A stretch of 64,000 nt of DNA from an uncultured Acidobacteriota bacterium (lineage in GTDB: Bacteria > Acidobacteriota > Vicinamibacteria > Vicinamibacterales > 2-12-FULL-66-21), in the NCBI GenBank assembly GCA_963804795.1, contig CAWDRS010000012.1:65606-129605 (forward strand). Reading direction: 5' to 3'. Under the pieces are notes generated by a model. It made no database searches and was not told the origin of the DNA. It was given only the letters and a program-made list of their open reading frames with translations. A program made the translations under genes and the position numbers. The stretch's first letter is position 1. Each line of letters opens with the position of its first letter. This document shows, in pieces, positions 36,029 to 58,291 of this stretch.

Positions 36029-36105
36029 CGGGGCGTGGCTCAGCCTGGTAGAGCACTCGGTTCGGGACCGAGGGGTCGGTGGTTCGAATCCACTCGCCCC
36101 GACCA
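36029..36105 (+). tRNA. tRNA-Pro (anticodon CGG)
   Basis: Acceptor stem CGGGGCG/CGCCCCG, discriminator A and an encoded CCA. D-loop GCTCAGCCTGGTAGAGC. Anticodon stem-loop CTCGG-TTCGGGA-CCGAG. T-arm GGTGGTTCGAATCCACT. Confidence 0.95.
36057..36105 (+). repeat. attL-like 49-bp direct repeat (3' part of tRNA-Pro, from the anticodon stem to CCA)
   Basis: tcggttcgggaccgaggggtcggtggttcgaatccactcgccccgacca is identical to 58243-58291. Confidence 0.85.
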
Positions 36106-36709
36106 CTTTTCCTCGCAGATTCCTCCGGTTTTTGTCGTGGCATCTCGGTTGCTGTCAGGTCGTGTCGGGCAGCGTTGAGCACATTTTGAGCACGTTCGGT
36201 TCGCTGGATGTGCTTCAAGGCTTCGCGAACACGCGCGACCCGACCGGTCGCGGCGCTCCTTCATTCGCAACATCCATCCCGACAGCAGTAGTCCAGTCGC
36301 TTCGTTCATCGGCGTCATCTGCATGTACGCCTTCCCGCATACTCGGCATTCACGGGTCAACGTGAAGCTCGCTGGAGAATCCTCCCAAATCGTCCGTGAC
36401 GGTAAGTAGCTTCCACGCCGCACTTCTCGCACGGCGCATTCTTCGTGGGTGGTTTGGTCATACCCCTCACTGGGATGCCTTCTTGGCGGACCCTTTTGAC
36501 CCTGCTCGTCTCTCGTCCAGCCGGTCCAGCCTTGAACGGCACCCCTGTTTGTTAACGGCTCCAACTCAGCGGGACACCGTACCAATCGCGAAACCCATCT
36601 ATTGAGTCCCAGATATGCGCCTGATTTGAAGCCGACCCACAACATGTCGTGCTTTTCCCTGAACAGTCGTGGTAACGTATCTGACCCGAAAAAAAGGCGA
36701 ACCCCCACC

Positions 36710-38158
36710 ATGACGAACCGCGCGCTCGTCTTCGTGAGCCATGCGAATCCTGAAGACAACGTCTTCAGCCGGTGGCTCTCCCTCAAGCTCGCAGCCGCGG
36801 GCTATCAAGTTTGGTCCGACGTCACAAAGCTACTGGGTGGCGAGGATTTCTGGCGTGATATCGAACCCGCCATACGCGACGGTTCAATCAAGTTTCTGTA
36901 CGTCCTCTCGCGTGCATCGAATACCAAAGTCGGTGCTCTGAAGGAACTCCGAGTCGCGCACGCGACCGCGAAGAAACAGCTACTCAAGGACTTCGTCATC
37001 CCGCTCCGCATCGATGACCTGCCACACGACGAAATCAACATCGAAATCGGACGGCTGAACGTCATTGAATTCGGCGGCAGTTGGGCAGCGGGATTGAAGC
37101 AGCTTCTAAAGAAGCTGGCAGCGGAAGGCGTTCCAAAGAGCGCAGCAAGTGGTCCAGACGTCGTACGCCAGTGGTGGGGTCGCGAGTTCGCCGCCGACAC
37201 CGGGGTCACCGAAGAACCGGAAGTTCACTACTCCAACTGGTTTCCGATTGAGCTACCGAAGCGAATCTATCGGTACTCGTCAATCGGGTTGGTCAACGAA
37301 CACGAAGACCCTGAATGGTCGTTCCCAACCCGATGGCACAACTACCGGCTCGTGACGTTTGCCTCCGCGGCAGACGTCGAACCCGGTCTTGGTTCTCTTA
37401 AGATTCAGCATGCAGAGCAGCGCGAGACGGCGTTGTTCCTGTCTGAAGAGAGTGCTGAGCGCCGTGACCGGCAGAACATTGTCACGGCGATGTTGAACGA
37501 TGCATGGGAGCAGTTCGCACTGTCGCGCGGACTCAAGAGGTATGAGATGGCGAACGGGAAGCCCGCCTTCTACTTCGACCTCGATGTGCTTCCAACCGGT
37601 GACGTGTGGTTCACGTCCGTTGAAGGGAAGAAAACGTTTCGGGGGTTGATGGGGTACAAGACGCGGAAGCCGCGTCCGGGCGTCGACCCGAACGCAGCCC
37701 CGACCCTTCGGCACTGGCATTTTGCGGTGAGCGCACGAACGGCACTGCACCCGTTCCCGATGCTTCAACTCCGTGCCCACGTGCTGTTCTCCGACGACGG
37801 ACGCAACGTGTGGTCTGCGCCAACCGCGAAGGGGCGCGAACGGGTACTGCGAGCGATGCATCGCACCCGTCGTAGCCAGTGCAAGCAGTGGTGGAACGAC
37901 GATTGGCGTGACCGGATTTTGGCGACGATGGCGTGGCTTGTGGGAGACGCGCTAACGCTGGACCTCCCGTTGTCTCTTGGTACCGCGGTCGCCGCGGTCA
38001 ATCCCCGCCCGGTGGAATTCGTCAGTCCGGTGAAATTGCGCGAACCCCGCGCCACAATTGCTGAGCCCACGCCGGACGAAGTCGATGAGGATGAGGATGA
38101 CGACGAGGATGCGATAGAGGACGTCCAGACCTCCGAAGCAGTGAAGGTGGAGAAGTGA
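36710..38158 (+). CDS. TIR-APAZ protein (SPARTA effector subunit)
   Basis: The TIR N-terminus reads ALVFVSHANPEDNVFSRWLSLKLAAAGYQVWSDV...FWRDIEPAIRDGSIKFLYVLS. A conserved Glu sits in GALKELRVA (codon 36944-36946). APAZ-like motifs: NWFPIELP, WHFAVSARTALHPFPML and KQWWNDDWRDRILA. Acidic tail DEVDEDEDDDEDAIED. Confidence 0.9.
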   Translation: MTNRALVFVSHANPEDNVFSRWLSLKLAAAGYQVWSDVTKLLGGEDFWRDIEPAIRDGSIKFLYVLSRASNTKVGALKELRVAHATAKKQLLKDFVIPLRIDDLPHDEINIEIGRLNVIEFGGSWAAGLKQLLKKLAAEGVPKSAASGPDVVRQWWGREFAADTGVTEEPEVHYSNWFPIELPKRIYRYSSIGLVNEHEDPEWSFPTRWHNYRLVTFASAADVEPGLGSLKIQHAEQRETALFLSEESAERRDRQNIVTAMLNDAWEQFALSRGLKRYEMANGKPAFYFDLDVLPTGDVWFTSVEGKKTFRGLMGYKTRKPRPGVDPNAAPTLRHWHFAVSARTALHPFPMLQLRAHVLFSDDGRNVWSAPTAKGRERVLRAMHRTRRSQCKQWWNDDWRDRILATMAWLVGDALTLDLPLSLGTAVAAVNPRPVEFVSPVKLREPRATIAEPTPDEVDEDEDDDEDAIEDVQTSEAVKVEK

Positions 38159-39675
38159 GCCGTCTTCCACTGCTCAAATTGACGGAACCGAGGCTGCGAT
38201 TCGGGTTCGAACAGGCGTTGGAAGACCCACGCGATGGACTGACGCTGTTCGGACCACTTGACGAGAGCAAGGTGTTCGCCGTTCGTCCCGCAGTCGTCGG
38301 TACTCCGGATGGCATCCGCCGTTTCCGGCGTTGGCTGGACGAAATTCAGCGACCCATTGACGACGCTAAGACTTCGCGCCCGCCGTATCCGGGATTCGAA
38401 GCCGCCTTCAACGTGCCGTTCAGCACGAAGCCGGTCTTCGAAATCCCACTGAACGAACGCGAACTGATTGACGCGTGCCACATCGAAGACCAGCATCAAC
38501 GTGTTCATCGCGTCGTGCAGTTGTACTCGGAGCCGATTAGGAATGTGGTCAAGGACGATGAAGCTGAAGCCGATGTATGGTTCGTCATCGTCCCTGAGGA
38601 AGTTTACGTAAGCTGCCGTCCTGAGTCCGTTGTCCCGAAAAGTCTGCGGACTCCCTTGGAAGGCGCCATCAGCGCCCGCATCGCACGAAAGCTGCTGTCA
38701 ACGCCGAGCTTCTTTCCAGACTTGAATGAGGACGCCACACCGTACAGATACCAACCGCATTTCCACAATCAATTGAAGGCACGGTTGCTTGACGTGGGTG
38801 TGCCGACGCAGGTCATTCGGGAAACGACCATCGCGCCGACCGACTTCTTGAACGTTGCCGGACATCCGAAGCGGCGCGTTGGACTGCGTTCTGAGATTGC
38901 GTGGAATCTCTGCACGACGGCGTTTTATAAGGCGGGCGCGCGACCGTGGAAGCTCGCAGATATCCGTCCGGGTGTGTGCTACCTCGGCATCGTGTTCAAG
39001 CAAGACGACGCGAGTCCGAACAAGGGATGGGCCTCCTGCGGGGCGCAGATGTTTCTTGATTCCGGTGACGGGCTCGTGTTCAAGGGCACGGGCGGACCGT
39101 GGTACTCCGCATCAACGCACAGCTTTCACTTGAACGAAGAGGCAGCGCGCGAACTCGTGGAGACAGCCGTGCGCGAGTACGCCATTCGTGTCGGTAAGCC
39201 GCCGGATGAACTCTTCATTCACGGGAAGGCGCGCTTTGACGACACGGAGTGGCGTGGTTTTCGCGCTGGAGCGTCAGACGGCACCCGCGTTGTTGGCGTT
39301 CGAATTCGGTTAGCGGAGGACCTGAGAATCTACCGTCCCGGTCGTCATGCGATTCTTCGGGGACTCGCGCACATCCGGGACGAGCGGACAGGGTTCCTGT
39401 GGGCGAACGGCTTCATCCCACGTCTCCAGACATATCCCGGACGCGAAGTGCCTCGTGGATTGTTAGTAGACGTCTGCCGTGGGCACGCGGACATTCGAAC
39501 CGTGCTGAACGACGTCTACGCGCTGACGAAGTTGAATTACAACGCCTGCGTCTACGGAGATGGGGAACCCGTCACTCTGAGCTTTGCCGACGCGGTCGGA
39601 GAGATTCTGACCGCGGGACCCGTGTCGGGTGCGCCACTGCCATTCAAGCTTGTACATCTGACGCCAACCTGTTAG
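38155..39675 (+). CDS. short prokaryotic Argonaute (MID-PIWI only; SPARTA sensor subunit)
   Basis: The GTG start overlaps the TIR-APAZ stop (GTGA). Motifs: DGLTLFGPL, PYPGFEAAFN, DVWFVIVPEEVYVSCRP, FHNQLKARLLDVGVPTQVIRETT, IAWNLCTTAFYKAGARPWKL, CGAQMFLDSGDGLVFKG and LTKLNYNACVYGDGEPVTLSFADAVGEILTAGP. At 506 aa there is no room for N/PAZ lobes. Confidence 0.9.
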   Translation: MSRLPLLKLTEPRLRFGFEQALEDPRDGLTLFGPLDESKVFAVRPAVVGTPDGIRRFRRWLDEIQRPIDDAKTSRPPYPGFEAAFNVPFSTKPVFEIPLNERELIDACHIEDQHQRVHRVVQLYSEPIRNVVKDDEAEADVWFVIVPEEVYVSCRPESVVPKSLRTPLEGAISARIARKLLSTPSFFPDLNEDATPYRYQPHFHNQLKARLLDVGVPTQVIRETTIAPTDFLNVAGHPKRRVGLRSEIAWNLCTTAFYKAGARPWKLADIRPGVCYLGIVFKQDDASPNKGWASCGAQMFLDSGDGLVFKGTGGPWYSASTHSFHLNEEAARELVETAVREYAIRVGKPPDELFIHGKARFDDTEWRGFRAGASDGTRVVGVRIRLAEDLRIYRPGRHAILRGLAHIRDERTGFLWANGFIPRLQTYPGREVPRGLLVDVCRGHADIRTVLNDVYALTKLNYNACVYGDGEPVTLSFADAVGEILTAGPVSGAPLPFKLVHLTPTC

Positions 39676-39679
39676 GTGT

Positions 39680-40519
39680 ATGGATATTCAGACTCTGCTG
39701 AGCATTCGTGAGACCAAGGCTCGCACCTTGGACGGCGTCCTTCGCCTTAAAGACAGATTCGTGCGGTACGTGGAACTGTTGAAGGGCGTGAGCAACGGCA
39801 GCAATTCTGTCGAGGAAGTCAACAAAGCCCAACACGAACGACTCCTTCGGTTGCGAAACGACGAAAACCGTTTCAACGAATGGGACAACGGGGAACAGAT
39901 GCTGAATCCGGACGTGTTCGGGCTAGCGGAGTCACCGAATGAATACCTGAAGCCGTCCTTGCTTTCCAGTGCTTCAGAGCGAGCGATTGCAAAGTTCGAC
40001 CATCTAGTCGAAGAAGCTCGCGACGAACTCACGGAAGTCGAAGCACAGATTGTTGCCATGACACCGGCAAGCGGGCATCCTGTCCCAAGCGAAGCCCTGT
40101 TTGGCAAGGGGCAGCAGTACGACGCACTCCGTCAGGTGCAAGCGATTCTCAACGGCGCGAAGCGTCAGATTCAAATTGTGGATGGGTACATCGACGCGCG
40201 CGTTTTGGATTTGCTAAAAGACAAAAACGCCGCTGTCAGGGTCGAAATCCTGACCAAAGAACAAAGCGCGAAGCCGTCGGTGACGTTGGCAGCCAATGCT
40301 TTCAATCAGCAATACAAAGGGCTGGAGCTTCGCACTTCAAACGTTTTTCACGACCGCTTTGTCATCATCGATGATGAGGATGTCTACCACTTCGGGGCGT
40401 CGATAAAGGACGCTGGCAAGTCCGGTTTCATGTTCACGAGGATTGAGGGACCTGACATGAAGGAGGCTGTCAGGCGAAGCTGGACCGCGGCGTGGGGCGC
40501 CGCGAAACTGGTAACGTAG
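39680..40519 (+). CDS. uncharacterised protein: coiled-coil N-terminal half plus degenerate PLD-fold-like C-terminal domain (HDR instead of HxK)
   Basis: Starts 4 nt after the pAgo stop. The C-terminus reads RQIQIVDGYIDARVLDLLKD...VRVEILTKE...LELRTSNVFHDRFVIIDDEDVYHFGASIKDAGKSGFMFTRIE (HDR codons 40349-40357). Confidence 0.6.
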   Translation: MDIQTLLSIRETKARTLDGVLRLKDRFVRYVELLKGVSNGSNSVEEVNKAQHERLLRLRNDENRFNEWDNGEQMLNPDVFGLAESPNEYLKPSLLSSASERAIAKFDHLVEEARDELTEVEAQIVAMTPASGHPVPSEALFGKGQQYDALRQVQAILNGAKRQIQIVDGYIDARVLDLLKDKNAAVRVEILTKEQSAKPSVTLAANAFNQQYKGLELRTSNVFHDRFVIIDDEDVYHFGASIKDAGKSGFMFTRIEGPDMKEAVRRSWTAAWGAAKLVT

Positions 40520-40533
40520 TCGAGAGGTTCGTC

Positions 40534-40899
40534 ATGAGCGCAGACGATTTCCGACAACTCTTCCACCTGACGCCCAGCCGCTGGGTCGAAGGGAAGTCCG
40601 CCAGCTACGCCCGAATTGAGGACTGGGAGACTGACCGTCCTGCAGATGCACTGGAGACGTGGGAAGAGCATCTGACGCAAAGCTCCATTTACTCACCTAC
40701 GTATTCGTCCAAGAAGTTGCTGTGGCGGCATCCGGAGCATTCTCAGGAAGAATGCGATGATGCCATCGCCGCTCAGTTCAAAAAGCCGTTTCACGGCGAT
40801 GCACCGGGACCGCTAGACGGCAACCGGCGCGAACAAAGAAGCGGCACAGCGAAGCCGAAGCCGGACACTCCGCCGCGCCTTCGATTTGACGACGAATAA
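40534..40899 (+). CDS. hypothetical protein (121 aa)
   Basis: Open frame with a start 14 nt after the previous stop, co-directional with its neighbours. No recognisable motif (MSADDFRQLFHLTPSRWVEGKSASYARIEDWETDRP...). Confidence 0.35.
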   Translation: MSADDFRQLFHLTPSRWVEGKSASYARIEDWETDRPADALETWEEHLTQSSIYSPTYSSKKLLWRHPEHSQEECDDAIAAQFKKPFHGDAPGPLDGNRREQRSGTAKPKPDTPPRLRFDDE

Positions 40900-40949
40900 C
40901 TGACGATTCGACCCGTCCCCGTTCGTTCAGTCTCAGGTGATTGAAGTCC

Positions 40950-42489
40950 ATGCTCACAGGCGAAATCCGCAGCCAAATCGACGCCATCTGGAACGCCTTC
41001 TGGACCGGCGGCATCTCGAACCCGCTGGAAGTCATCGAGCAGATTACCTATCTGCTGTTCCTGAAGCGACTGGACGACCTGCACACGCTGGAAGAGAACA
41101 AGGCCGCACGGCTGAAGAAGCCGATCGAGCGGCGCATCTTCCCCGAAGGCGCGGACCCGAAGGGTCGTCCCTACGAAGACCTTCGGTGGTCGCGGTTCAA
41201 GAACCTCGCGCCAGCCGAGATGTTCACGCGTCGTCAACGACCACGTGTTCCCGTTCCTGCGGACGCTGGGCGGCGACGACTCGACCTACGCCCATCACAT
41301 GAAGGACGCCCGGTTCACGATTCCGACTCCGGCGCTGCTGGCGAAGGTCGTGGACATGCTGGACCACGTCCCGATGGACGACCGGGACACGAAGGGCGAC
41401 CTGTACGAATACATGCTCGGCAAGATTGCGACGGCTGGGCAGAACGGGCAGTTCCGGACGCCCCGGCACATCATCCGCCTGATGGTCGAGATGATGGAGC
41501 CGACCGCCACGGACGTGATTTGCGACCCGGCCTGCGGCACATGCGGGTTCCTGGTGGCAGCGGGTGAACATCTCCGCGAGCGGCATCCCGAGATTCTGCG
41601 AGACGCCACCAGCCGAGAGCATTTCCACCACGGGATGTTCCACGGGTTCGACTTCGACAACACGATGCTCCGCATCGGCAGCATGAACATGCTGCTGCAC
41701 GGCGTCGAGAACCCGGACATCCGCTATCGGGATTCGCTGGCGCAGGACCACGCGGGCGAAGACGAGAAATACACGCTGGTGCTGGCGAACCCGCCGTTCG
41801 CCGGGTCGCTGGACTACGAGACGGTCGCCAAGGACTTGCTGGCGGTCGTCAAGACGAAGAAGACCGAACTGCTGTTTCTGGCGCTGTTCATTCGGCTGCT
41901 GAAGCCCGGTGGACGGGCAGCGGTCATCGTGCCGGACGGCGTGCTGTTCGGGTCGTCCAAGGCCCACAAGGAACTGCGGCGGATTCTGGTTGAGGACCAA
42001 AAGCTGGATGCGGTGATTTCGCTGCCCAGCGGTGTGTTCCGTCCCTACGCGGGTGTCTCGACGGCGATTCTGACGTTCACGAAGACGAACTCGGGCGGCA
42101 CGGACTTCGTGTGGTTCTACGACGTGGATGCGGACGGATGGAGCCTGGACGACAAGCGGACGCCGCTGCTGCCGGACGAGAAGCTGGGTCCGCTTCCGAA
42201 GCAGCCGCTGACGGCAGACGAGCACGAGAAGAACAACCTGCCGGACGTGCTGGCGCGATGGAGCCAACACGCCAAGGCTGAACGGGAACGTCCCCGAACG
42301 GCTCAGAGTTTCTGCGTGCCCAAGGCGGACATCGCTGCCGCTGGCTACGACCTGTCGCTGAACCGCTACAAGGAAGTCGTCCACGAAGAAGTGCAGCACC
42401 GGGCACCGAAGGACATTCTGGCGGACCTTGAGAAGCTGGAAGCGGAGATTCAGCAGGGACTCAAGGAACTTGAAGGGATGCTGAAGTGA
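40950..42489 (+). pseudogene. hsdM: type I restriction-modification methyltransferase subunit HsdM; one frame break (~41229)
   Basis: HsdM_N (IRSQIDAIWNAFWTGGISNPLEVIEQITYLLFLKRLDD), AdoMet motif DPACGTCGFL, catalytic LANPPFAGS. AGGTGA RBS at 40935-40940. Confidence 0.9.
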
Positions 42490-43735
42490 GCTGCGACGTG
42501 GCCGACGAGTTGACGCTCGGCGAATCGACTGCTGTTCGAGATCGGCGACCGTCGGAAGGCACTCGGCCGCCGACGAATCGGCGACTTCGTGCAGGGCGGT
42601 CCATGCATTCGAGAATCGAATCTCGGCGTACGAGTCGGCGACTTCGCTGACACGGTCGTATGTCAGCAAGAGCACGAGCGCAATCGACTGCGCGACGGCA
42701 ATCTCGCGATCGGTGACGTTCTGCTCAGCTCAACGCGGCATCGCTTGGCCAAGTCGCACGGCGACTTCCGCAGACTGAACGATTCGACTACGCGACTTCG
42801 CCAGCATTCGTGACGAAGCTGAGCTCCGACACCCGTCGACGTTCGACATCGTCTTCACTTGCTGGCTTCAATACGCCGGATGCACTGAGCTCGAGCTGCT
42901 CGGCGCAGGCGGCGACGGTCAACGACATCTGACATCGGCATAGTGCAGCGTTCGCAGTTCCTCTCCCGCCCCTTCCCGAACAACGCCGCATCGCGGCCAT
43001 CTTGGACAAAGCGGACGAGTTGCGGGCGAAGCGACGGGCAGCGTTGGAGCAACTGAACGGTCTCACGCAGTCGATGTTCTTGGAGATGTTCGGTGACCCG
43101 GTGACGAATCCGACAGGGTTGGCAACTCGTGCCGCATTGGTCGACGTTGCGTCGAGGCACTCGCTAACGGCGGTCCGTCGAAGCCATCGCAGAATACGTG
43201 CGACGGCGAGAGTGCCGTCTATGAGCACGAGTCACTGCGATTGCGGCGACGTACGCGTCATCTGATGACGATCACTGCACGTCGAAGTACACGCTGACCG
43301 ACATGACGCTCAGACGTGAAGCACGGTGACAGTCGGCGACTGTTCTGTCACGAAGCGCTGCGACATTGGCGTGCAATGCTCGTGCGAGGTCGACACGCGC
43401 GATGCCGTATGCGTGCTGACATCAGACGTTTGCTGCGATCGTCTGACACGCAGATCGAGCCGCGATATCTGCGTCAGCATTGTCGAGACTCAGCCTACGC
43501 AACGCGAGCTTGGCCAGACGTGACAGACCGGCATCGCAGATCGATCGAACTATCATGAAGTCAAAGCTTCGCAGTTCACGATTATCGCTGCCACCGCTGA
43601 CTCTGCAGCGAGAGTTTCGCACGACGGTTGGCAGCCGTGGAGCGACTGAGACGCTGCAGCGAGATCGCCGTCGCAGCAGTTGATGACGCTCTGTTCGCAT
43701 CTCTTCAGCACCAAGCCTTCAGCGGAGCACTCTGA
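42486..43735 (+). pseudogene. hsdS: type I R-M specificity subunit HsdS; multiply disrupted
   Basis: Right length and position (GTGA overlap with hsdM; stop 2 nt before hsdR). The conserved central helix is recognisable ([51 protein letters not shown]). So is the conserved C-terminal region (LPPLTLQREF...LFASLQHQAFSGAL-stop). The variable target-recognition regions contain stops in every frame. Confidence 0.6.
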
Positions 43736-43737
43736 CG

Positions 43738-46700
43738 GTGAGCAACTTCGCCTTCCTGCAGCCGGAGTGGGCGACACTCCACGAATCGGCGCGGAAGGCT
43801 GAACGGCTGGTCTACGCCGACCCACGGGCATCCTGCTTCTACGCCCGTCGCGCCTTGGAACTCGCCGTGTCGTGGCTCTACAAACACGACAGCGGGCTGC
43901 GCTTGCCGTATCAGGACCACCTGAGTGCCCTGATTCACGAACCGACGTTCCGGCAGACCGTGGGCGATGCCGTCTTCAACAAGGCGCGGGTCATCAAAGA
44001 CCTTGGCAATCTCGCCGTCCACAGCCAGCGTCCGGTGCGGCAGTTCGATGCGCTGACGGCGACCAAGGAACTGTTCCACGTCTGCTACTGGCTGGCGCAC
44101 ACCTACTCGACAGGCGCGAAGCCCGCCGCTGGCCTGACGTTCGACCCCGCCAGCGTGCCGAAGCCCGCAGCGGCTCCGACACCCGCAGCCGTCCCGACGC
44201 AGACCGTTGACCAACTGAAACGGCTGGAACAGGAACTCCGCGAACGAGACGAGAAGCTGTCGGCGCTGCTGGCCGACCGGACGACGCTGGATGCCGAACT
44301 GGTGCGGCTCCGTGAGGAAGTGGCGGCGGCGAAGAAGGCCAACACCGCCACGCCCGACGCGCACGACTATTCCGAAGCCGAGACCCGCGATTTCTTCATC
44401 GACCTGCTGCTGAAGGAAGCGGGCTGGGCACTGGACCGGCCACAGGACCGCGAATACGAAGTCACGGGGATGCCCAACGCCGAAGGCAAGGGCTTCGTGG
44501 ACTACGTGCTGTGGGGCGACGACGGGAAGCCGCTGGGTCTGGTGGAAGCCAAGCGCACCAAGCGGGATGCCCGCGTCGGTCAACAGCAAGCGAAGCTGTA
44601 TGCCGACTGTCTAGAGAAGCAGTTCGGCCAGCGTCCCGTCATCTTCTACTCGAACGGCTACGACCACTGGCTGTGGGACGACACGAACTACCCGCCCCGT
44701 CCGGTGCAGGGGTTCTACAAGAAGGCCGAACTCCAACTGCTGGTGCAGCGGCGAACGACCCGCAAGGCGCTGGCGGATGCGCCCATCAACGACGCCATCG
44801 TGGAGCGGTTCTACCAGACCCGCGCCATCCGCCGCATTGCGGAGACGTTCGAGAGGGACCACCAGCGGAAAGCCTTGGTCGTCATGGCGACCGGCGCGGG
44901 CAAGACCCGCACGGTCATTGCCCTGTGCGACTTGCTGATGCGGTGCAACTGGGTCAAGCGGGTGCTGTTCCTGGCCGACCGCATCGCACTGGTCAACCAA
45001 GCCGTCAACGCCTTCAAGAAGCATCTGCCGGATTCGTCGCCGGTCAATCTGGTGACGGACAAGGACGAAGAGGGTCGGGTGTTCGTCTCCACGTATCCGA
45101 CGATGATGGGCCTGATTGACGACGCCACGGACGGGCAGCGTCGGTTCGGCGTCGGGCACTTCGACGTGGTCATCATCGATGAAGCCCACCGGTCGGTGTA
45201 TCAGAAATACGGGGCCATCTTCGACTACTTCGATTCGCTGCTGGTCGGACTGACCGCCACGCCGAAGGACGAAATCGACCGGAACACCTACCGGCTCTTT
45301 GACCTTGAACGGGGTGTCCCGACCGATGCCTACGCGCTTGGACGACGCGGTGAACGACGGCTTTCTGGTCCCGGCCAAAGCCGTGGCCGTGCCGCTCAGG
45401 TTCCCGCGAGAGGGCATCAAGTACGCCGACCTGTCGGAAGAAGAACAGGAACAGTGGGACGCACTGGAATGGGACGACGAAGGCCACGCGCCGGACCACG
45501 TGGAAGCCGCCGCCGTCAACCGCTGGCTGTTCAACGAAGACACGGTGGACAAGGTGCTGGAACACCTGATGACCCGTGGGCAGACCGTGGCGGGTGGGGA
45601 CCGGCTCGGCAAGACCATCGTCTTCGCGAAGAACAACGACCACGCCCTGTTCATCGCGGACCGGTTCAACAAGAACTACCCGCACTACAAGGGCGAGTTC
45701 GCCCGGGTCATCACGTTCAAGACGGAATACGCCCAGAGCCTGATTGACAGCTTCGCCAATCCCGCGAAGTCGCCGCACATCGCCATCTCCGTGGACATGC
45801 TGGACACGGGCATCGACATCCCCGAAGTCGTCAATCTCGTGTTCTTCAAGCTGGTGCGGTCGAAGACGAAGTTCTGGCAGATGGTCGGACGCGGCACCCG
45901 GCTGTGTCCCGACCTGTTCGGTCCCGGCAAGGACAAGGAGTTCTTCTACCTGTTCGACTACTGCCAGAACCTGGAGTTCTTCAGCCAGAAGATGCCGACG
46001 ACGGACGGTGCGCTGGGCGAATCGCTGGGCACACGCCTGTTCAAGACGCGCGTCGGACTGCTTGTGGCGTTGGACCAGCGGCTTGCGGAAGTCGGCATCG
46101 GTCCGTTCGCGACGGCTGGACGGCATGGCGAGAGAGGCCAGTCCCGCCTACGGCGAGACGGAGCACGGCGTGCGTGACGAGACCGCGACGTTGCTGCGGT
46201 CACAGGTCGCCGCGATGAATCTCGACAACTTCATCGTCCGTCCGAAGCGTCGGTTCGTGGAGCGATACGCGCAGGAAGAACCGTGGAAGAAGCTGGGCGA
46301 GGAACAGGTCGGAGAGTTGGTGCAGGAAGTCGCATCGCTGCCGACCGAACTCACCGACGACGACGAAGAGGCCAAGCGGTTCGACTTGCTGATGCTGAAC
46401 CTGCAACTGGCCGTGCTGCACGTCAAGCCGGGGTTCGAGCGTCTGAAGGAGCAGGTGCGGTCCATCGTCGGGATGCTGGAAGACAAGAGCAGCATTCCGA
46501 TGGTGCGGGAGCAGATGCCGCTGATTGACGCCGTGGCCGGTGAGGAATGGTGGCAGGACGTGACCGTGCCGATGCTGGAAACGGCGCGGAAGCGGCTGCG
46601 GTTGCTCATCAAGCTGATTGAGAAGGTCCATCGGAAGCCGGTCTACACCGACTTCGAGGACCAGATGGGTGCCGAGACCGCCGTTCCCGCTGCCCGAGTT

Positions 46701-47186
46701 CACAGCGTGGCCGACCGCACGAAGTTCGTGGCGAAGGCGCGGCAGTTCCTCAAGGCGAACGAGAATCACATCACCATTCCCGACTGCGGCTCAACCAGCC
46801 GTTGACGGCATCGGACCTCGCTGAACTCGAACGCATGATGGTGGACGCCGGGGTCGGGACGGCGGACGACATCGCACGGGAAAAGGAGCAAGAGCCAAGG
46901 GCTTGGGCGTGTTCATCCGGTCGCTGGTCGGCTTGGACCGGGAAGCGGCGAAGCAGGCGTTCAGCCAGTTCTTGTCGGGCGGGACGGCGACGGCGAACCA
47001 GGTCGAGTTCGTGAACATGATCGTGGACTACCTGACCGAGAACGGCGTGATGGACCCGAAGCGGCTCTACGAGTCGCCGTTCACGGACGTGAGCCCGAGA
47101 GGTCCAGAGGGCGTGTTTTCGTCCGTGCAGGTGGACCAACTCGTGGCGGTCTGGCGGAGATTCGGGAACGGGCGGCGGCGGCGTAG
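43738..47186 (+). pseudogene. hsdR: type I restriction enzyme R subunit HsdR (DUF4145-type N-terminus); at least four frame breaks
   Basis: SNFAFLQPEWATLHESARKAE..., VMATGAGKTRT, VIIDEAHRS, LVGLTATP and MLDTGIDIPEVVNLVFF. The C-terminal EcoEI_R_C-like part ends, after frame correction, in LVAVLAEIRERAAAA-stop (TAG 47184-47186). Confidence 0.9.
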
Positions 47187-47203
47187 TGTCCAAAAGGACG
47201 CCT

Positions 47204-47860
47204 ATGGAGAACACCGGCGCACTGACACTGTCGCAGCATCTCTTGGATGAGGCGAACCGCTTCATGTTTTATCCCGTCAAGTCTCGGAGAGACCGCATTA
47301 CGCTTGCCGCTCAGAAAACGCTCGATGCTGCCATGAGGCATCTCTTGGAGTGGCGAAAGACGTTCGTGCCGGATGAGCACCGAAAGGCGCTTGAGATTCT
47401 TTGGTCGAACCCCACGCTCTTGAACCAGATTCACTGTCGTCAGCAACTTTCGGCGGTCCCTGACATTGTCGAAAGAACTCTCGCGTTACGGTCACTGACG
47501 CTGGCGGGTATTCCTGATGCGGAATCGCTCGCGTACCTGCGAGAGGCTGCGAACAGCTACATCTTGGGACTCCCGCTCGCGACGGTTGCTCTCTCGCGTG
47601 CAGCCGTCGAACGTGCGCTTAAACAGGCCTGCGCGAAGCGATTCGGAGCCCGCGCAGTCGAAGAGGCGTGTCTTGACGAGGTAATCGAGCGATTCGCGCC
47701 CAGCGTGCTGAGCAAGGGCGCGTGCGCCTTGGCGAACATCGTTCGGAAAAAGGGAAACGAGGTTCTGCACCCAAAGGGTCGCACCGCGCCAAGTGTGGCA
47801 GCATCGCTACAGGTACTGGAAGCGGCGCGGGATGTTCTTCGAGACCTTCCTCGAGTCTAG
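47204..47860 (+). CDS. DUF4145-like protein
   Basis: The C-terminal pattern is ATVALSRAAVERALKQACAKRFG...ALANIVRKKGNEVLHPKG. It resembles the DUF4145 helix pair also seen at the HsdR N-terminus. Confidence 0.5.
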   Translation: MENTGALTLSQHLLDEANRFMFYPVKSRRDRITLAAQKTLDAAMRHLLEWRKTFVPDEHRKALEILWSNPTLLNQIHCRQQLSAVPDIVERTLALRSLTLAGIPDAESLAYLREAANSYILGLPLATVALSRAAVERALKQACAKRFGARAVEEACLDEVIERFAPSVLSKGACALANIVRKKGNEVLHPKGRTAPSVAASLQVLEAARDVLRDLPRV

Positions 47861-47909: not shown

Positions 47910-48017
47910 ATGAACCGCGTTGTGCTCATTTCATGCGCTAGCCGGAAGCTTCAGCACCGTGCGAAGGCGGCGGACCTGTACGTCAGCGACCTGTTTCGTC
48001 TGAGTCTTGGGTTTGCT
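47910..48017 (+). pseudogene. 5' fragment of a DUF6884-like gene, truncated by IS66 insertion
   Basis: MNRVVLISCASRKLQHRAKAADLYVSDLFRLSLGFA stops exactly at the IS terminal repeat GTAAGACCTCGCC (48018). Confidence 0.4.
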
Positions 48018-48090
48018 GTAAGACCTCGCCGCGCCCCGTCTAGTCAAATGCGCCTCGGCGGTCCACACTTCTCCGCACCAGGAGGATGGG

Positions 48091-48449
48091 ATGGATCACG
48101 ACGTGAAGGCGTTTCGTGCGGCGGCGGGGCGGGAGAATGGGAGCCGGACGGGCCTGCAGCGGCGGTACTCGCCGGCGTTGCGCGCGCAGGCGGTGCGCTG
48201 CTGGCGCGTGCGGCGGCGAGCGGGCGAGTCGCTGCGTGATGTGGCGGTGGCGCTGGGCGTGGCGCCGTGGAGTCTCCATCGCTGGACGCGGTCATCGCCG
48301 ACGCGAACGCGCTTCATCCCGTGCAGGTGGTGTCGGCTGCGGCGCCGAGCGTCGATGGGGGCATCGTCGTCGTGCTCAACGGGGAGAGCACGCGGGTGGA
48401 AGGCCTGGACGTGGTGTCCGTCGCGCGGTTGCTCGGGCTGCTGCGATGA
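48091..48449 (+). pseudogene. tnpA: IS66 TnpA (orf1), copy 1; one frame break ~48290
   Basis: RYSPALRAQAVRCWRVRRRAGESLRDVAVALGVAPWSLHRWTR, then in another frame VVVLNGESTRVEGLDVVSVARLLGLLR. Confidence 0.7.
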
Positions 48450-48826
48450 GATGGCATGGCCGGCGCGTGACGGTGTATGCGTACGGGCGCCCGACCGACA
48501 TGCGCAAAGGCTTTGATGGGCTCTCGGCCCTCGTGACGCAGGACTTGGCGCGCGACCCGCTCAGCGGCGAGATCTTCATCTTCGTCAGCCGCGATCGCGT
48601 CAGGACCAAAGTGCTCCAGTGGGACGGCACCGGGTTATGCGTGTACGCGAAGCGTCTGGAGCGCGGGCGGTTCGCGTCTCTTTGGCGTGACGACGCCGAC
48701 CCGCCGATCGCGCTGACGATCACCGAGCTCGATCTCTTTCTCGACGGCAGCACGTTGGTGGGGCGTGTCGCGCTATCGCCGCCGGCGATCACGCACTTTT
48801 CGCTTGCGTCGGATCGTGCCAAATAA
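48446..48826 (+). CDS. tnpB: IS66 accessory protein TnpB (orf2), copy 1
   Basis: MRWHGRRVTVYAYGRPTDMRKGFDGLSALVTQDLARDPLSGEIFIFVSRDRVRTKVLQWDGTGLCVYAKRLERGRF. ATGA overlap with tnpA. Confidence 0.85.
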   Translation: MRWHGRRVTVYAYGRPTDMRKGFDGLSALVTQDLARDPLSGEIFIFVSRDRVRTKVLQWDGTGLCVYAKRLERGRFASLWRDDADPPIALTITELDLFLDGSTLVGRVALSPPAITHFSLASDRAK

Positions 48827-48954
48827 TAAAATGAATTCTTGGATTGTGGAGCTTACCTACGAGGGGGATGTCGACACGCTTCGCCAGATTGAGTGTAAGT
48901 CCTCGCCGTGGCCCGTCGGTCCTCGTTCAGTGACGGCTCGCGGCCGGCCGGAGT

Positions 48955-50441
48955 TCAGGCGGTCGGGAGGAGCGTGTCCGGCAGCGTGACGGTGCCGGGG
49001 CCGGCGAGTGCGGCGTCGATCGCGACGGTCAGATACGCGTGGGCATCGACCCCGATGAGGCGTGCGCTTTCGCAGAGGGTGTAGAAGAGGGCCGCGACCT
49101 GCGTCCCGCGCAGCGAGCGCGAGCCGTAATGATTCTTGCGGCCGACGACGGGACCCCGCAGCGCGCGTTCCGCGGCGTTGTTGTCGAGCGGGATCCGCGG
49201 ATCGGTGAGAAAGCGCGTCAGGCCGGCCCACCGCTCGAGCATGTAGCGGACGGCCTTGCCGAAGTCGCTGCGGGGCAAGCCGACCTGTACAGTGGCCCAG
49301 TCCCAGATGCGATCGAGCACCGGCTGCGATCGCTCGCGGCGGAGCTGGTGGCGTAACGCTTGGGCCTCGGCGTTGCCAGGGAACGGACCGGGCACCTCGC
49401 GTTCGATCGCGTAGAGCTCGCCGATCAGTCCGGCGATCGCCTCACACGCGACCGGCCACTGGTCCGCGATGTCGTCGTACTTGCGTTTCGCGTGCGCCCA
49501 GCAATGCGCGAGCGTGAAGCCCGGCCCGTCGCGCGCGAGCACCTCGTACACCGCGAATCCATCCACGACCGCGATCCCGCGATACCCGGCCAGCACCTGG
49601 CGCCCTTCCTCCGTCGACTTGCCCGGCAGGATGCGATAGAACGACTCGGTCGGCGTGCGCACGGTCCACACCGTGCCGGCCGCCGGCTTGGCCGAGCCCA
49701 TGATCGCCCACCGGGTTTCGTCGACGTTGATCACCGGCGCCTCAAGGGCCCGGCGGCCCAGCGCCTCGTAGGTCGGCTCCAGATGGCGCGCCAGCGCGTT
49801 GAGCTGATCCCACAGCGTCTGCGATTCGACGATCAGCCCTTCGCGCGCCATCATCCGGACCTGGCGTTCGAGCGGCAGATGATCCGCGTACTTCGCGACG
49901 GCGACGCCCACGGCAAACGCCGGCGCATAGCGCCGCCGGGGATGAGCTGCGCCGGGCCGGGCGCCGTCACGACCGCGCCGTTGCACCCGCAGCGGTACTT
50001 CTGCCGGAGATGCTGTTCGATGTGGTACGTGAGCTTCACCGTGGTCACGCGCTCCGACGTCTCGTCTGGCCCGCCATGGCGGTCACCTCGCCGCCGCACG
50101 CCGGACACGCGCGTTGATCCGGCGCGAGCTCGTGACGGATCTCGACGGTGGGCAACGTGGGCTGCGCGCGCGGGCCGTGCCCCGGTCGTGCCGGCCGCGG
50201 GCGCCGGCGGCGGGCGGGCGCGGCGCGCGCGCCAAGGCCTGCGCGCGCGCCTGCTCGAGCGCTGTCGGAGCGCGAGTTCGAGTTGCTCGGGATCGGCCAC
50301 GCCGCGCAGGCGCGCGAGCTCCGCGGTCAGCTGCAGATTCTTGGCGATGAGGCGCTGGTTTTCACGATCGAGGAGGAGGCTGATCTGGCGCAGCGTGTCG
50401 AGGTCGCGCTCGTCCGTGAGCTCCACCATGCAGGAGAGCAT
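48955..50441 (-). pseudogene. tnpC: IS66 transposase TnpC, copy 2; frame breaks in the N-terminal third
   Basis: N-terminus MLSCMVELTDERDLDTLRQISLLLDRENQRLIAKNLQLTAELARLRG. The zinc-finger region is frame-shifted. The C-terminal 343 aa are intact (VINVDETRW...AHCWAHAKRKY...PLDNNAAERALRGPVVGRKN). Confidence 0.85.
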
Positions 50442-50445
50442 TTGA

Positions 50446-50825
50446 TCATGTGGCCCGATCCGACGCAAGCGAAAAGTGCGTCATCGCGGGCGGCGACAGC
50501 GCGATGCGGCCGACGAGCGTGCTGCCATCGAGAAACAGATCCAGCTCGCTGATCGTCAGCGCGATCGGCGGCTCGCCGTCGTCCCGCCAGAGACACGCGA
50601 ATCGTCCCCGCTCGAGCCGCTTCGCATAGACGCAGAGCCCGTCCCATCCCAATGGAGCACCTTGGTCCTGACGCGATCGCGACTGACGAAGATGAAGACC
50701 TCCCCACTCAGCGGATCGCGCGCCAGGTCCTGCGTCACGAGGGCGCACAACCCATCGAAACCCTTGCGCATGTCCGTGGGCCGTCCGTAGGCGTACACCG
50801 TCACCCGCCGGCCGTGCCATCTCAT
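50446..50825 (-). pseudogene. tnpB: IS66 TnpB, copy 2; one frame break ~50640
   Basis: MRWHGRRVTVYAYGRPTDMRKGFDGLCALVTQDLARDPLSGEVFIFVSRDRVRTKVLHWDGTG, then a shift to LCVYAKRLERGRFACLWRDDGEPPIALTISELDLFLDG. Confidence 0.8.
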
Positions 50826-51180
50826 CGCAGCAGCGCGAGCAGCCGGGCCGCGGTCTCCACGTCCAGTCCTTCGACACGCGTGGACGTCGCGCCCACGACG
50901 ACCACGAGGTCCGCGCTCCCGGTGCGTCGCTCCGGAGCGACGATCTGCCACGGGATGAAAGCGCGCACGTGCGGCGACGCACGGGTCCAGCGGTAGAGAC
51001 TCCACGGGGCGACGCCGAGCGCCACCGCCACATCACGCAGCGCCTCGCCCGCCGCTTGCCGCGCACGCCAACACCGGACCGCCTGCCCTCGCACGCCGGC
51101 GAGTAGCGCCGCTGCAGCCCCGTTCGCTGCCCATTCTCCCGTTGCCGCCGCCGCGCGAAACGCCTGACGTCCTGATCCAT
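50822..51180 (-). pseudogene. tnpA: IS66 TnpA, copy 2; one frame break ~51095
   Basis: MDQDVRRFARRRQRENGQRTGLQRRYSPA, then a shift to RGQAVRCWRARQAAGEALRDVAVALGVAPWSLYRWTR...RVEGLDVETAARLLALLR. Confidence 0.7.
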
Positions 51181-51252
51181 CGCATCCTCCTGGTGCGGAG
51201 AACTGTGGACCACTTTGCGTGTTTGACTAGACGGGGTGCGGCGAGGTCTTAC

Positions 51253-51345
51253 AGATCAGTCTCCTCCTCATCGCGAAAATCAACGCCTCATCGCGAAGAA
51301 TCTGCCGCTGACCGCGGAGTCGCGCCGCACTGCGGGTCACCGATG
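51253..51345 (+). pseudogene. tnpC: continuation of copy-1 tnpC after the copy-2 insertion, then lost (deletion junction)
   Basis: QISLLL.RENQRLIAKNLPLTAE matches residues ~19-43 of copy-2 TnpC. Similarity ends near 51345. Confidence 0.5.
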
Positions 51346-55360: not shown

Positions 55361-56748
55361 TTACCAGGCAGCAAACTCCGCCTCGGGCACCTGCGCGGCG
55401 GCGACCAGCGCGCCGGCGGCGGCGTTCGCCACGTCATCGAGTTGGCGCGGTGCGTGGTCAATGCTGTCCTTGCCGCCGCGCGCGCATCGCCGCTCCAGCC
55501 CGGCGAGTTGCTTCAGCAGGCGGGCATGATCCAGCAGCTCGCACGTGCCCGACATGATCAACGGCAAACTGTCTTGATAAATCTGCGACTTCGTGCGCTC
55601 ACTCGGCTCCACCGTGATGCCCACCTTCTGAAACGCTTCAGTGGGCCACGAGCCCGCATACCGGTCGCTCGTGGCGGTGGTGATCCGGAAAGCCTTGAGC
55701 ACCGCCGCGAACTCCCGGACCACCGCCTCAGGGGAAAACGGCGGCCGCACTTCGCGGATCACGTCGAGCACCGCCCGCCCGTCGTGGTGGTGCGCGATGG
55801 CCAACGTCATCGAGTCGGAACCTGTGCCGCCGCTGGGATCGAGGAAGGCGTAGTATTGTACACGGAGGCATACGACTGCTCGAACCGCCCCGGCATGCGC
55901 ACGGCGTTGAGCACGTCAAGGGGGAGGAAGGCCTCCACATCGGTTCGAAATTCGCCGGCAAACTCCGCCGCCGCCGCCATGGGATCGTCCTCGTACGCCT
56001 TCTCGATCACACGGTGATCAATGCACGGGTTCATCACCCACGTCGGCGCATTCACCACGAGCACATCGGCCGATTCGTTGCGCCCGAAATGGGTGTCATA
56101 CGTCCTCCACACTTCGGCGCGTCTGGCGTAGACGCTCGTCAAGGCAATCAGCATCGCGCTGGGTACGGACGCCATCGAGGCTCGCAATGCGATCAGCGCT
56201 TCACGATCTGGGTTGGCCGAGTCGTCATCGGCCCAGAAGGCGACTTCATCGCAGGCCGCGCCGATGCAGGTGTACCCACGGAGTGATCGAAACGAACAGG
56301 TGTGAATTTCAATGCAGAGACCGTTCGTCAGCCAGATCCCCTCGACCGTCTCGTGGTCCACAAGTGCATTGAGCGATGGATGCGATCTGAAGAGGCCGCT
56401 GACGTACTTCTTAACGACGCGCGCCTGTCGCCGGTCGCTCGCGATGCACATAAAGACGCCCGTTTCGCCGGGGCGAGCGTGTACGAGCGACAGGTGGTCG
56501 CGAACACCGCGAGCAAGGCCGCGATGATGGATTTGCCAGACCGGCGCCCGAGGAGCAACCACAGTTCACGCACAGGACCCGAAGGGAACGTGGAGCGTTG
56601 GGTCAGCGGTGCGAAGTACACGATGGTCCTCATCACTCAGATCGAGGGCATGCGCGGCTTTGAGCACGCACCGCCACGTCGCCCAAGTGTCGGCCCCGAA
56701 CGTCGAGCCGAGAACACGATTCATGAGCGTATGGCTGCGCACGGGCAC
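55361..56748 (-). pseudogene. phage terminase large subunit; at least three frame breaks; N-terminus possibly truncated
   Basis: Walker A LLLGRRSGKSIIAALLAVF, Walker B-like CDEVAFWADDDS, and a nuclease half LAIAHHHDGRAVLDVIREVRPPFSPEAVV...SDRYAGSWPTEAFQKVGI. Confidence 0.75.
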
Positions 56749-57150: not shown

Positions 57151-57381
57151 ATGCGAACCGCCGGTGTCCGTGAAGCCCGTCAGAACCTCACCGATCTACT
57201 CGAGGACGTGAAGAAGGGACGCGAGGTCGTAATCACCGATCGCGGCCGTCCGGTCGCTCGCCTGGCGCCCGTCGCACGTCGCCGTCCCTTCCCCGATCTC
57301 GCGCGTGTACGCGCCGCATTCCGCGGACCCGATCCCACACTGTCACAGGCCGTCCTCGAAGAACGGGAAGATCGCCTGTGA
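57151..57381 (+). CDS. Phd/YefM-family antitoxin
   Basis: MRTAGVREARQNLTDLLEDVKKGREVVITDRGRPVARLAPV. The stop overlaps the toxin start. Confidence 0.8.
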   Translation: MRTAGVREARQNLTDLLEDVKKGREVVITDRGRPVARLAPVARRRPFPDLARVRAAFRGPDPTLSQAVLEEREDRL

Positions 57382-57848
57382 GCCCGTCCGATACCGCCGA
57401 CGCCGCAGCCGAACGCTGGGCAGAGCCGGTCTATCTGGACGCGAGCGCCCTGGTGAAGTTGTTCGTGCCAGAAACTGAAAGCGACGAGTTGAATAAGGCG
57501 CTCGCCGGCATGACCGACGTAATCGTCTCCGACCTCGCCCTGACCGAGATGGCGTCTGCCCTTGGCCGCCGCACGCGCGAACACCTCCTCACTCGCAAGG
57601 AAGCGCAGCGCCTGTATCGTGAAGCGTCGAAGTTGCACATGTCCTCACTCAGTGCCGAGCTGACGCCGCCGATCCACCGCCGCGCCGAGAGGCTGATGCT
57701 CTCGCTGGCGATCCCGCTGCGCGCGCTCGATGCCCTTCATCTGGCCACGGCGCTCGACGCCGAAGCGGCGACGGTCGTCACCTTCGATTCCCGTCTGCGT
57801 GATGCGGCCCTCTCTCAAGGATTGTTCGTGGCGCCTCAGGGCGTCTGA
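57378..57848 (+). CDS. vapC: PIN-domain toxin (VapC family)
   Basis: VYLDASALVKLFVPE...LALTEMASAL...LRALDALHLATAL...VVTFDSRLRDAA (the four acidic PIN positions are present). Confidence 0.8.
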   Translation: MSPSDTADAAAERWAEPVYLDASALVKLFVPETESDELNKALAGMTDVIVSDLALTEMASALGRRTREHLLTRKEAQRLYREASKLHMSSLSAELTPPIHRRAERLMLSLAIPLRALDALHLATALDAEAATVVTFDSRLRDAALSQGLFVAPQGV

Positions 57849-58242: not shown

Positions 58243-58291
58243 TCGGTTCGGGACCGAGGGGTCGGTGGTTCGAATCCACTCGCCCCGACCA
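58243..58291 (+). repeat. attR-like 49-bp direct repeat (orphan 3' end of tRNA-Pro)
   Basis: Identical to 36057-36105. The preceding sequence has no tRNA 5' half. Confidence 0.85.

Follow-up and report, generated by a model that had tools for sequence, protein, structure and literature searches.

A probable SPARTA short Argonaute system on a tRNA-Pro island of a Vicinamibacterales chromosome

Within a 64,000-nt stretch of an acidobacterial contig (CAWDRS010000012.1, assembly GCA_963804795.1, positions 65,606 to 129,605; hereafter the window, whose own numbering is used throughout), we examined two adjacent genes that encode a TIR-APAZ protein and a short prokaryotic Argonaute (pAgo). An original prediction, made from this DNA without database searches, had described them as a SPARTA-type defence pair. 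Our analyses indicate that the two genes most probably form a two-gene SPARTA system, which belongs to clade S2A of the short pAgos and is part of the cargo of a 22-kb element that sits in the tRNA-Pro gene of a Vicinamibacterales (Acidobacteriota) chromosome; we assign this joint reading a probability of roughly 0.88.

The TIR-APAZ and short Argonaute genes

The two open reading frames (ORFs) and their overlap have the coordinates and lengths originally given for them (Table 1), and the peptide motifs quoted at that time are all present. The TGA stop codon of the first gene (38156-38158) overlaps the GTG start codon of the second (38155-38157), and a Shine-Dalgarno sequence, AAGGTGGAG, lies immediately 5′ of this GTGA overlap, an arrangement that points to translational coupling of TIR-APAZ and pAgo. 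Overlaps of 4 nt are found more often in the family than any other spacing (31 of 64 loci), and TIR-APAZ lies directly 5′ of pAgo in 84 of 86 related loci, the remaining two ending at contig edges. A longer ORF for the first gene, opening with a TTG codon at 36602, was considered and rejected, given that the homologs all start at the MxNR position. A scan for sigma-70 promoters returned no match.

The first gene product matches the PADLOC model Aga_TIR-PNTD1-PNTD2 at 7e-127 over model positions 2-441 of 443, and its amino acids (aa) 5-470 align with the TIR-APAZ chains of the characterised SPARTA systems of Maribacter polysiphoniae (Map), Crenotalea thermophila (Crt) and a Bacillales bacterium (Bab) at 4e-65 (PDB sequences). 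Its AlphaFold2 (AF2) model has a predicted local distance difference test score (pLDDT) of 81.8, and the top 35 Foldseek matches of this model in the PDB are all SPARTA TIR-APAZ chains, at ~30-33% identity. Homologs number 817, the best full-length ones at 80-82% identity. The second gene product matches PADLOC pAgo_I at 2.9e-186, and its aa 6-498 align with residues 4-504 of the 507-aa Bab, Crt and Map pAgos at 1e-136, with no extra domains (neither N nor PAZ); it shares 44% identity with BabAgo over 490 aligned positions. At E<1e-20, the search recovered more than 3,995 homologs, the best at 81% identity. The AF2 model of this protein is poor (pLDDT 65.3) and was used for fold ranking only; its top ~35 Foldseek matches are all SPARTA pAgos. 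Profile searches, which had been proposed as a check on the original prediction, bore it out for Pfam TIR_2 (4e-18) and for the PADLOC TIR-APAZ and pAgo_I models, but the Pfam Piwi model did not match the pAgo and neither did the NCBIfam models; we regard these as false negatives, short pAgos being too divergent for models of this kind. Taken together, the TIR_2, PADLOC and PDB matches uphold the identification of a TIR-APAZ protein paired with a short MID-PIWI Argonaute as SPARTA.

Short pAgos with APAZ partners fall into several clades, of which S2A comprises the (Mrr-)TIR-APAZ systems and S2B the DUF4365/DHS-like systems (Koopal 2022, PMC9097488). Against the window pAgo, the SPARTA pAgos score 454-459 bits, whereas SPARHA, SPARDA and SiAgo, the next-best Argonautes (1e-46 to 1e-13), reach at most 163 bits; Foldseek likewise ranks SPARTA first for both subunits and places SPARHA and SPARDA a long way below. 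Going by score ranking alone, S2A and not S1 or S2B would be the clade of this pAgo. No N-terminal Mrr or restriction endonuclease (REase) domain is present in the partner, in which TIR begins at aa 7, and the match to the PADLOC REase-TIR model is confined to the part of the model from position 159 onward. Since the protein starts with TIR at aa 7, it lies outside the Mrr-TIR-APAZ subclade.

We then considered the residues on which SPARTA function depends, mapping them through HMMER alignments from published structures and mutagenesis of the TIR domain (PMC9097488, PMC10899771, PMC11156904) and of the pAgo (PMC10355822, PMC10474274, PMC11156904). The codon at 36944-36946, in which the catalytic Glu had been placed beforehand, encodes Glu79, which aligns with the catalytic Glu77 of Map and Crt TIR-APAZ, and the BB-loop G44-x-D46-F47-W48 is kept (corresponding to G42...W46 in characterised SPARTA). 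Family conservation was counted on 64 TIR-APAZ proteins taken from loci in related genomes; the catalytic Glu is retained in 64/65 and the BB-loop Trp in 63/65 family members. In the pAgo, the MID pocket residues H204, K208, Q219 and K259 are identical to H207, K211, Q222 and K263 of Map, and the RNA-guide contacts R222 and T225 are identical to Map R225 and T228; R155 (equivalent to R152) and N463 (equivalent to N468, a Mg2+ ligand) are also kept. By homology to the Map and Crt pAgos, which show no cleavage (PMC9097488), the PIWI domain presumably lacks the DEDX catalytic tetrad. In APAZ, N176 (equivalent to N174) and the tail-contacting R388 and K392 (equivalent to R362 and K366) are retained. 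Among the mapped functional residues there are only two exceptions, the pAgo C-terminus and TIR His106, the latter being usual in the subclade.

Two further features of the TIR-APAZ protein concern the region that closes the nucleic-acid channel in characterised systems. The C-terminal acidic tail is typical of the family, which has a median tail of 36 aa with 45% Asp/Glu and tails this long or longer in 19 of 64 relatives; the published range for SPARTA is 16-46 aa and 21-45% acidic, and in those systems the role of the tail as a plug is established (PMC10899771). In the window protein the tail is disordered in the AF2 monomer, and we predict that it acts as an auto-inhibitory plug of the nucleic-acid channel. 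In CrtSPARTA, the tail runs along the basic entry helix of APAZ (bioRxiv 2023.07.12.548734). In the AF2 model of the window protein, this helix is placed at aa 373-390 and is lengthened by about two turns by an insertion in APAZ, with a second insertion enlarging a β-hairpin loop. Both insertions are absent from the genome-derived relatives (0/64) and present in P0241, a database relative at 80% identity, a distribution that marks a small sublineage. An origin of the insertions as frameshift artefacts was rejected, as they are in-frame (24-30 nt) and kept in P0241.

Table 1 Features of the SPARTA operon and of the surrounding island (positions in the window; source, where given, in the last column).
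Feature	Position	Strand	Source
TIR-APAZ gene, 482 aa, ATG start; predicted NADase effector subunit	36710..38158	+	PADLOC, PDB, AF2/Foldseek
TIR domain, aa 7-133	36728..37108	+	Pfam TIR_2 4e-18
APAZ domain, ~aa 160-443	37187..38038	+	residue mapping
APAZ insertion 1, aa 323-332, 10 aa, hairpin loop	37676-37705	+	AF2 secondary structure
APAZ insertion 2, aa 373-381 (TAKGRERVL), 9 aa, basic entry helix	37826-37852	+	AF2 secondary structure
Acidic C-terminal tail, aa 444-482, 39 aa, 44% Asp/Glu	38039..38155	+	composition
GTGA stop/start overlap	38155..38158	+	sequence
Short pAgo gene, MID-PIWI, GTG start; 506 aa as read, 501 aa minus the extra base	38155..39675	+	PADLOC, PDB, Foldseek
MID 5′-phosphate pocket and RNA-guide contacts	38764..38931	+	residue mapping
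+1 frame break at pAgo 3′ end, CTT-G-TAC-ATC-TGA	39649..39661	+	homolog comparison
PLD-like gene, 279 aa, PADLOC candidate PDC-S05	39680..40519	+	PADLOC 2e-38; Pfam PLDc_2 5e-5 (below cutoff)
tRNA-Pro(CGG)	36029..36105	+	ARAGORN; Rfam tRNA, 63 bits; repeat alignment
attL core, 3′ 49 nt of tRNA-Pro	36057-36105	+	repeat alignment
135-aa ORF beside restriction-modification module, without Pfam match	40492-40899	+	
224-aa ORF beside restriction-modification module, without Pfam match	47186-47860	+	weak PHROG 'DNA binding protein' match, 2e-4
TnpB_IS66	48116-48826	+	IS66-family
TnpB and DDE_Tnp_IS66 transposase	48955-51213	-	IS66-family
Terminase-large-subunit-like remnant, frame-broken	55361-56562	-	PHROG 8.5e-8
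PIN-domain toxin, close to attR	57378-57848	+	Pfam 9e-16
attR, exact repeat of the tRNA-Pro 3′ half (49 nt)	58243..58291	+	pattern search, alignment

Departures from the canonical system and the Argonaute 3′ end

Three observations weigh against reading the pair as an unaltered SPARTA. First, the position of Map TIR Tyr105, a residue called catalytic in MapSPARTA and whose mutation strongly lowers NADase activity (PMC11156904), is occupied by His106; in this acidobacterial subclade His is the consensus residue, and other subclades have Tyr or Phe. Second, the pAgo as read is missing the near-invariant terminal Tyr-Ile, with which 118 of the 120 closest homologs end (K/R-x-Y-I-stop). Third, the single extra base responsible for this loss is found again in L100 (ENA contig_31775), the only other copy known, so the lesion may be real.

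The extra base lies at 39650-39652 (AAGCTTGTACATCTGA) and shifts the frame two codons ahead of the native stop (39659-39661). At this point AAG CTG TAC ATC TGA stands in the nearest relatives, and AAG CTT G TAC ATC TGA in the window. As read, the protein ends ...KLVHLTPTC-stop, and with one base removed it ends ...PLPFKLYI-stop at 501 aa. Both genes had at first been described as essentially intact, which does not hold for the pAgo given this +1 break. In characterised SPARTA the terminal carboxylate of Ile507, the last pAgo residue, helps to coordinate the Mg2+ to which the guide 5′-phosphate is bound, and mutating residues that orient this phosphate abolishes NADase activity (PMC10474274, PMC11156904); as read, the window copy has no free C-terminal Ile at the Mg2+/5′-phosphate site. 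The missing Ile concerns the intactness of this copy and not its family membership. Each testable SPARTA-defining feature is present in the pair, save for the free C-terminal Ile and with Tyr105 replaced by His.

Only two contigs in a collection of 15 billion proteins carry this SPARTA. An exact lookup of the window pAgo gave no match, although by cluster lookup the protein is present in this collection, on a contig of 366,767 nt. L100 is 22,637 nt long, begins at attL and aligns to window positions 36102-47567; it has about the same length as the integrated element and may represent the island in excised form or as a strain variant. The block that holds SPARTA and the PLD-like gene (window 36102-40900) is ~99% identical between the two, whereas hsdM and hsdR of the type I restriction-modification (R-M) module (window 40941-47567) are ~92% identical, with changes that are almost only synonymous. 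The island is a mosaic: with 165 indels and 159 mismatches over 1.25 kb, its hsdS region is too diverged for a clean alignment, a pattern suggestive of a different specificity subunit and of module exchange in the recent past. In L100 hsdM is intact (469 aa), and TIR-APAZ and pAgo are broken by seven single-base deletions. No further copy of the pAgo 3′ end was found in IMG/VR, and the partner pAgo of P0241 leaves its contig ~8 codons before the end.

Whether the extra base is real has to be judged against the quality of the window, in whose 64 kb the reading frame is broken by single bases at ~15-20 sites, for the most part through +1 insertions outside homopolymers. Inside the island these affect hsdM (~41229), hsdR (~45337, ~46124), the IS66 copies and a Ser/Thr-kinase-TPR gene (51.9-53.8 kb), and outside it surE (35264) and an FtsX/MacB permease (32.4-35.2 kb; at least four frame segments), with further break regions at 25.2-27.5, 31.3-32.3, 55.4-56.5 and 60.9-62.2 kb. 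In surE, a single C is inserted, and identity to the best homolog is 100% to one side of it and 94% to the other. Two of the window's break sites share a change from GCTG to GCTTG, and the others differ. Differences between the window and L100 stand at 40:5 synonymous to nonsynonymous in hsdM and 63:11 in hsdR, ratios which argue that both genes are functional and under purifying selection. Comparison with L100 and with close homologs thus indicates that the frame breaks of the window are assembly or sequencing indel errors rather than pseudogenes, and the apparent R-M pseudogenes are almost certainly assembly errors. An intact SPARTA had originally been set against broken R-M genes; this contrast falls away, since the breaks are spread across the window (surE and the FtsX permease among them), hsdM is intact in L100 and the R-M genes are under strong purifying selection. 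The window is best treated as a low-accuracy assembly, in which apparent pseudogenes (R-M, surE, permeases) are unsafe as evidence of decay.

The pAgo break differs from these in one respect. Three other break sites of the window could be checked against L100 and none is common to it (0/3), whereas the extra base is, so that an independent random error at this site is very unlikely. Two origins then come into question for the extra base: both island variants may have inherited a real mutation, or a systematic error specific to the sequence context may have arisen in both assemblies. Taken alone, the site leans towards a real mutation. The activity of this copy would depend on which of the two applies. 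If the base is an artefact, the site is AAGCTGTACATCTGA and the system an intact canonical SPARTA; if AAGCTTGTACATCTGA is correct, the lesion is real.

One alternative is that the +1 frameshift is genuine and, as a recent event, has attenuated or crippled this SPARTA, the locus being an incipient defence pseudogene. Deprived of the Ile carboxylate and burdened with a 7-residue extension, the MID pocket could no longer hold the Mg2+/5′-phosphate of the guide, with loss or a strong reduction of both guide loading and NADase activation. The identical extra base occurs in two assemblies that differ elsewhere (R-M ~8% divergent, distinct indel error profiles), which together with its absence of parallels among the three checkable breaks speaks for a real event; the C-terminal Tyr-Ile is near-invariant and functionally implicated, and SPARTA inactivation does occur in nature, as seen in the interrupted operon described below. 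Against this, the window is full of single-base insertion errors, surE included, and one hsdR break is of the same kind (GCTG to GCTTG) and lies at a site also misread in L100; both assemblies might share sample and sequencing technology, and the remainder of both genes is flawless, with the other functional residues all kept. On balance we consider this scenario a tentative one and rather unlikely, a judgement that applies, more narrowly, to a mutation that is real and at the same time disabling.

A related possibility is that the frameshift is real, inherited by at least two island variants and tolerated, such that this sublineage runs SPARTA without the canonical Tyr-Ile carboxylate at the Mg2+/5′-phosphate site. 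We think this improbable. If it were true, it would imply changed anchoring of the guide 5′ end or a higher activation threshold, and, in combination with the longer entry helix and the long acidic tail, a tighter auto-inhibition latch.

An interrupted operon was observed at a related locus (L004:4758-9506, 72% pAgo identity), in which an ISAZ013-type insertion sequence (IS) lies between a truncated TIR-APAZ gene (401 aa) and pAgo; the sister contig of this locus, L003, carries an intact SPARTA pair. The split operon of L004 is a natural case of SPARTA inactivation.

The island and its neighbouring genes

The preferred reading, a two-gene SPARTA carried on a tRNA-Pro island, also rests on the genomic setting of the operon. 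A pattern search for the 49-nt att repeat returned 2 matches against 0 expected, and the two copies bound a ~22.2-kb integrated element at 36106-58291; the tRNA-Pro island of the original prediction is confirmed by the second copy. Besides SPARTA, the island carries the PLD-like PADLOC candidate, the type I R-M genes, IS66 elements, the kinase-TPR gene, a terminase-like remnant and a PIN toxin. No integrase was found within the island, and the tRNA was the sole Rfam match. GC content and GC content at third codon positions (GC3) of SPARTA are below host values. The nearest named relatives of surE are from Vicinamibacterales, in agreement with the acidobacterial host proposed earlier. The IS66-family sequences at 48016-51254 are inverted, with arms that are 82-93% complementary (I1-I7), and are all frame-broken in the assembly. 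The terminase remnant and the PIN toxin near attR suggest that the island derives from a phage-like element or has captured pieces of one.

Directly 3′ of SPARTA lies the PLD-like gene, which had been noted as an extra gene following the pair, without being filed as part of the system. It does follow directly, starting 5 nt past the pAgo stop as read and on the same strand; no terminator was found between the two, and it is probably co-transcribed with SPARTA. Its product matches the NCBIfam VPA1262 N-terminal domain at 2e-10; only its C-terminal half (aa ~131-261) is kept in metagenomic homologs, at 40-44% identity, and the N-terminal ~130 aa gave no match. One could postulate on these grounds a three-component system in which the PLD-like protein serves as second effector or regulator, a view to which the short gap, the match to a PADLOC defence candidate and the higher identity to L100 of the SPARTA-PLD block than of the R-M genes (a sign that SPARTA and the PLD-like gene moved together recently) all lend some weight. 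The wider distribution of the gene makes this very improbable, however. No PLD-like homolog lies within 6-8 kb of related SPARTA loci (0/86), no TIR-APAZ or pAgo lies near PLD-like homolog loci (0/13), and the genes 3′ of the closest SPARTA loci showed no homology to it; apart from the APAZ protein, no gene was found to have a specific association with short pAgos (Koopal 2022, PMC9097488), and PDC-S05 is catalogued as a single-gene candidate. Because of the two locus counts, the unrelated genes 3′ of relatives and the published association, we interpret the PLD-like gene as a neighbouring defence candidate and not a SPARTA subunit; the originally noted adjacency stands, and a conserved role in SPARTA does not.

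Known systems, predicted mechanism and significance

The characterised Map, Crt and BabSPARTA, all of clade S2A and known from Koopal 2022 and from cryo-EM and crystal structures of 2023-2025, have the same two-gene operon with TIR-APAZ first and an overlapping start. They share with the window pair the catalytic Glu, the BB-loop Trp, the H-K-Q-K pocket of MID, the R222/T225 guide contacts, the H-x-F-H core of the sensor loop, the basic entry helix and the acidic C-terminal tail. Their hosts are Bacteroidota or Bacillota, whereas the window copy is from Acidobacteriota; they have TIR Tyr105 where the window copy has His106, and they lack the 9-aa entry-helix and 10-aa hairpin-loop insertions, found otherwise only in the P0241 sublineage. 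Several residues at the pAgo-pAgo interface are also changed in the window copy (N129V, N131D, K135E, P499A), and its pAgo C-terminus is frameshifted as read. The closest database relatives are SPARTA pairs from metagenomes and metagenome-assembled genomes of Vicinamibacterales and other Acidobacteriota (P0001, 81% identical in pAgo; P0241, 80% in TIR-APAZ; L007-L009; L023). They are alike in architecture, overlap and subclade residues such as His106, and P0241 has the same 482-aa length in addition to both APAZ insertions; unlike the window pAgo, the complete ones all end K/R-x-Y-I-stop, and their flanking genes differ from those of the window, as is usual for the variable content of defence islands.

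Two other groups of short pAgo systems invite comparison. The S2B systems (SPARDA, SPARHA and the DUF4365- and DHS-like-APAZ systems) likewise combine a MID-PIWI pAgo with an APAZ partner that has an acidic C-terminal extension, and are activated in a guide-dependent manner by oligomerisation, but their effector is a nuclease or another non-TIR domain and their matches to the window proteins are weaker (pAgo 1e-46 to 1e-33 vs 1e-136; APAZ 1e-11 or worse vs 1e-37). SPARSA (S1A/S1B), in which SIR2-APAZ stands with the pAgo or is fused to it, also has a short pAgo controlling NAD+ depletion, but has a SIR2 effector and no acidic C-terminal tail, and the PADLOC SIR2-APAZ model matches the window protein weakly (2e-15). 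The original prediction had assigned the pair to S2B and had staked its reading on that placement, but the label is mistaken: SPARTA is S2A, and S2B holds DUF4365-, DHS-like- and nuclease-APAZ systems. That the pair nevertheless belongs to another short pAgo clade such as S2B, or uses another effector logic (a nuclease or a signalling TIR) in place of NAD depletion, is highly implausible despite that label and His106 in place of Tyr105, given that S2B is defined by non-TIR APAZ fusions while the partner here carries a TIR, that S2B-type structures (SPARDA, SPARHA) fall 10-25 orders of magnitude below SPARTA for both subunits, and that Glu79 and the BB-loop Trp are kept.

For a two-gene SPARTA of clade S2A, a mechanism can be proposed from the experimentally characterised Map, Crt and Bab systems (PMC9097488, PMC10899771, PMC10355822, PMC10474274, PMC11156904, bioRxiv 2023.07.12.548734). 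TIR-APAZ and the MID-PIWI pAgo would form a heterodimer, in the resting state of which the acidic tail would lie along the basic APAZ entry helix and plug the guide/target channel while the MID domain would keep the TIR domain inactive. The pAgo would load 5′-phosphorylated small RNAs in the MID pocket (H204/K208/Q219/K259 with Mg2+), and pairing of the guide with complementary single-stranded DNA of a highly transcribed, multicopy invader would expel the tail and move the PIWI sensor loop. These changes would lead to pAgo-pAgo dimerisation and then to tetramerisation, in which the BB-loop (W48) of one TIR would enter the next to build a composite active site around Glu79; the resulting hydrolysis of NAD(P)+ would end in cell death or arrest (abortive infection). 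The outline given in the original prediction, with RNA-guided DNA sensing, oligomerisation, NAD(P)+ depletion and the tail plug, agrees with the published work (PMC9097488, PMC10899771, bioRxiv 2023.07.12.548734).

SPARTA was defined in 2022; its structure has been solved dozens of times and its homologs run into the thousands, with many from Acidobacteriota, and a further copy has little discovery value in itself. The acidobacterial host, which had been put forward as a point of interest, adds no novelty, as SPARTA is very common in this phylum: Acidobacteriota make up most of the best 80 among at least 574 species-representative matches, and Acidobacteria were already part of the 2022 SPARTA tree (Koopal 2022, PMC9097488). 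What is new here is a SPARTA sequence ~80% identical to its nearest database relatives, and the remaining interest lies in the lengthened entry helix of its sublineage and in the C-terminal frameshift that it shares with L100. If that frameshift is real, this copy would be a natural allele that probes the dependence of SPARTA on the Argonaute C-terminal carboxylate, and an example of a suicide defence disabled or tuned in nature.

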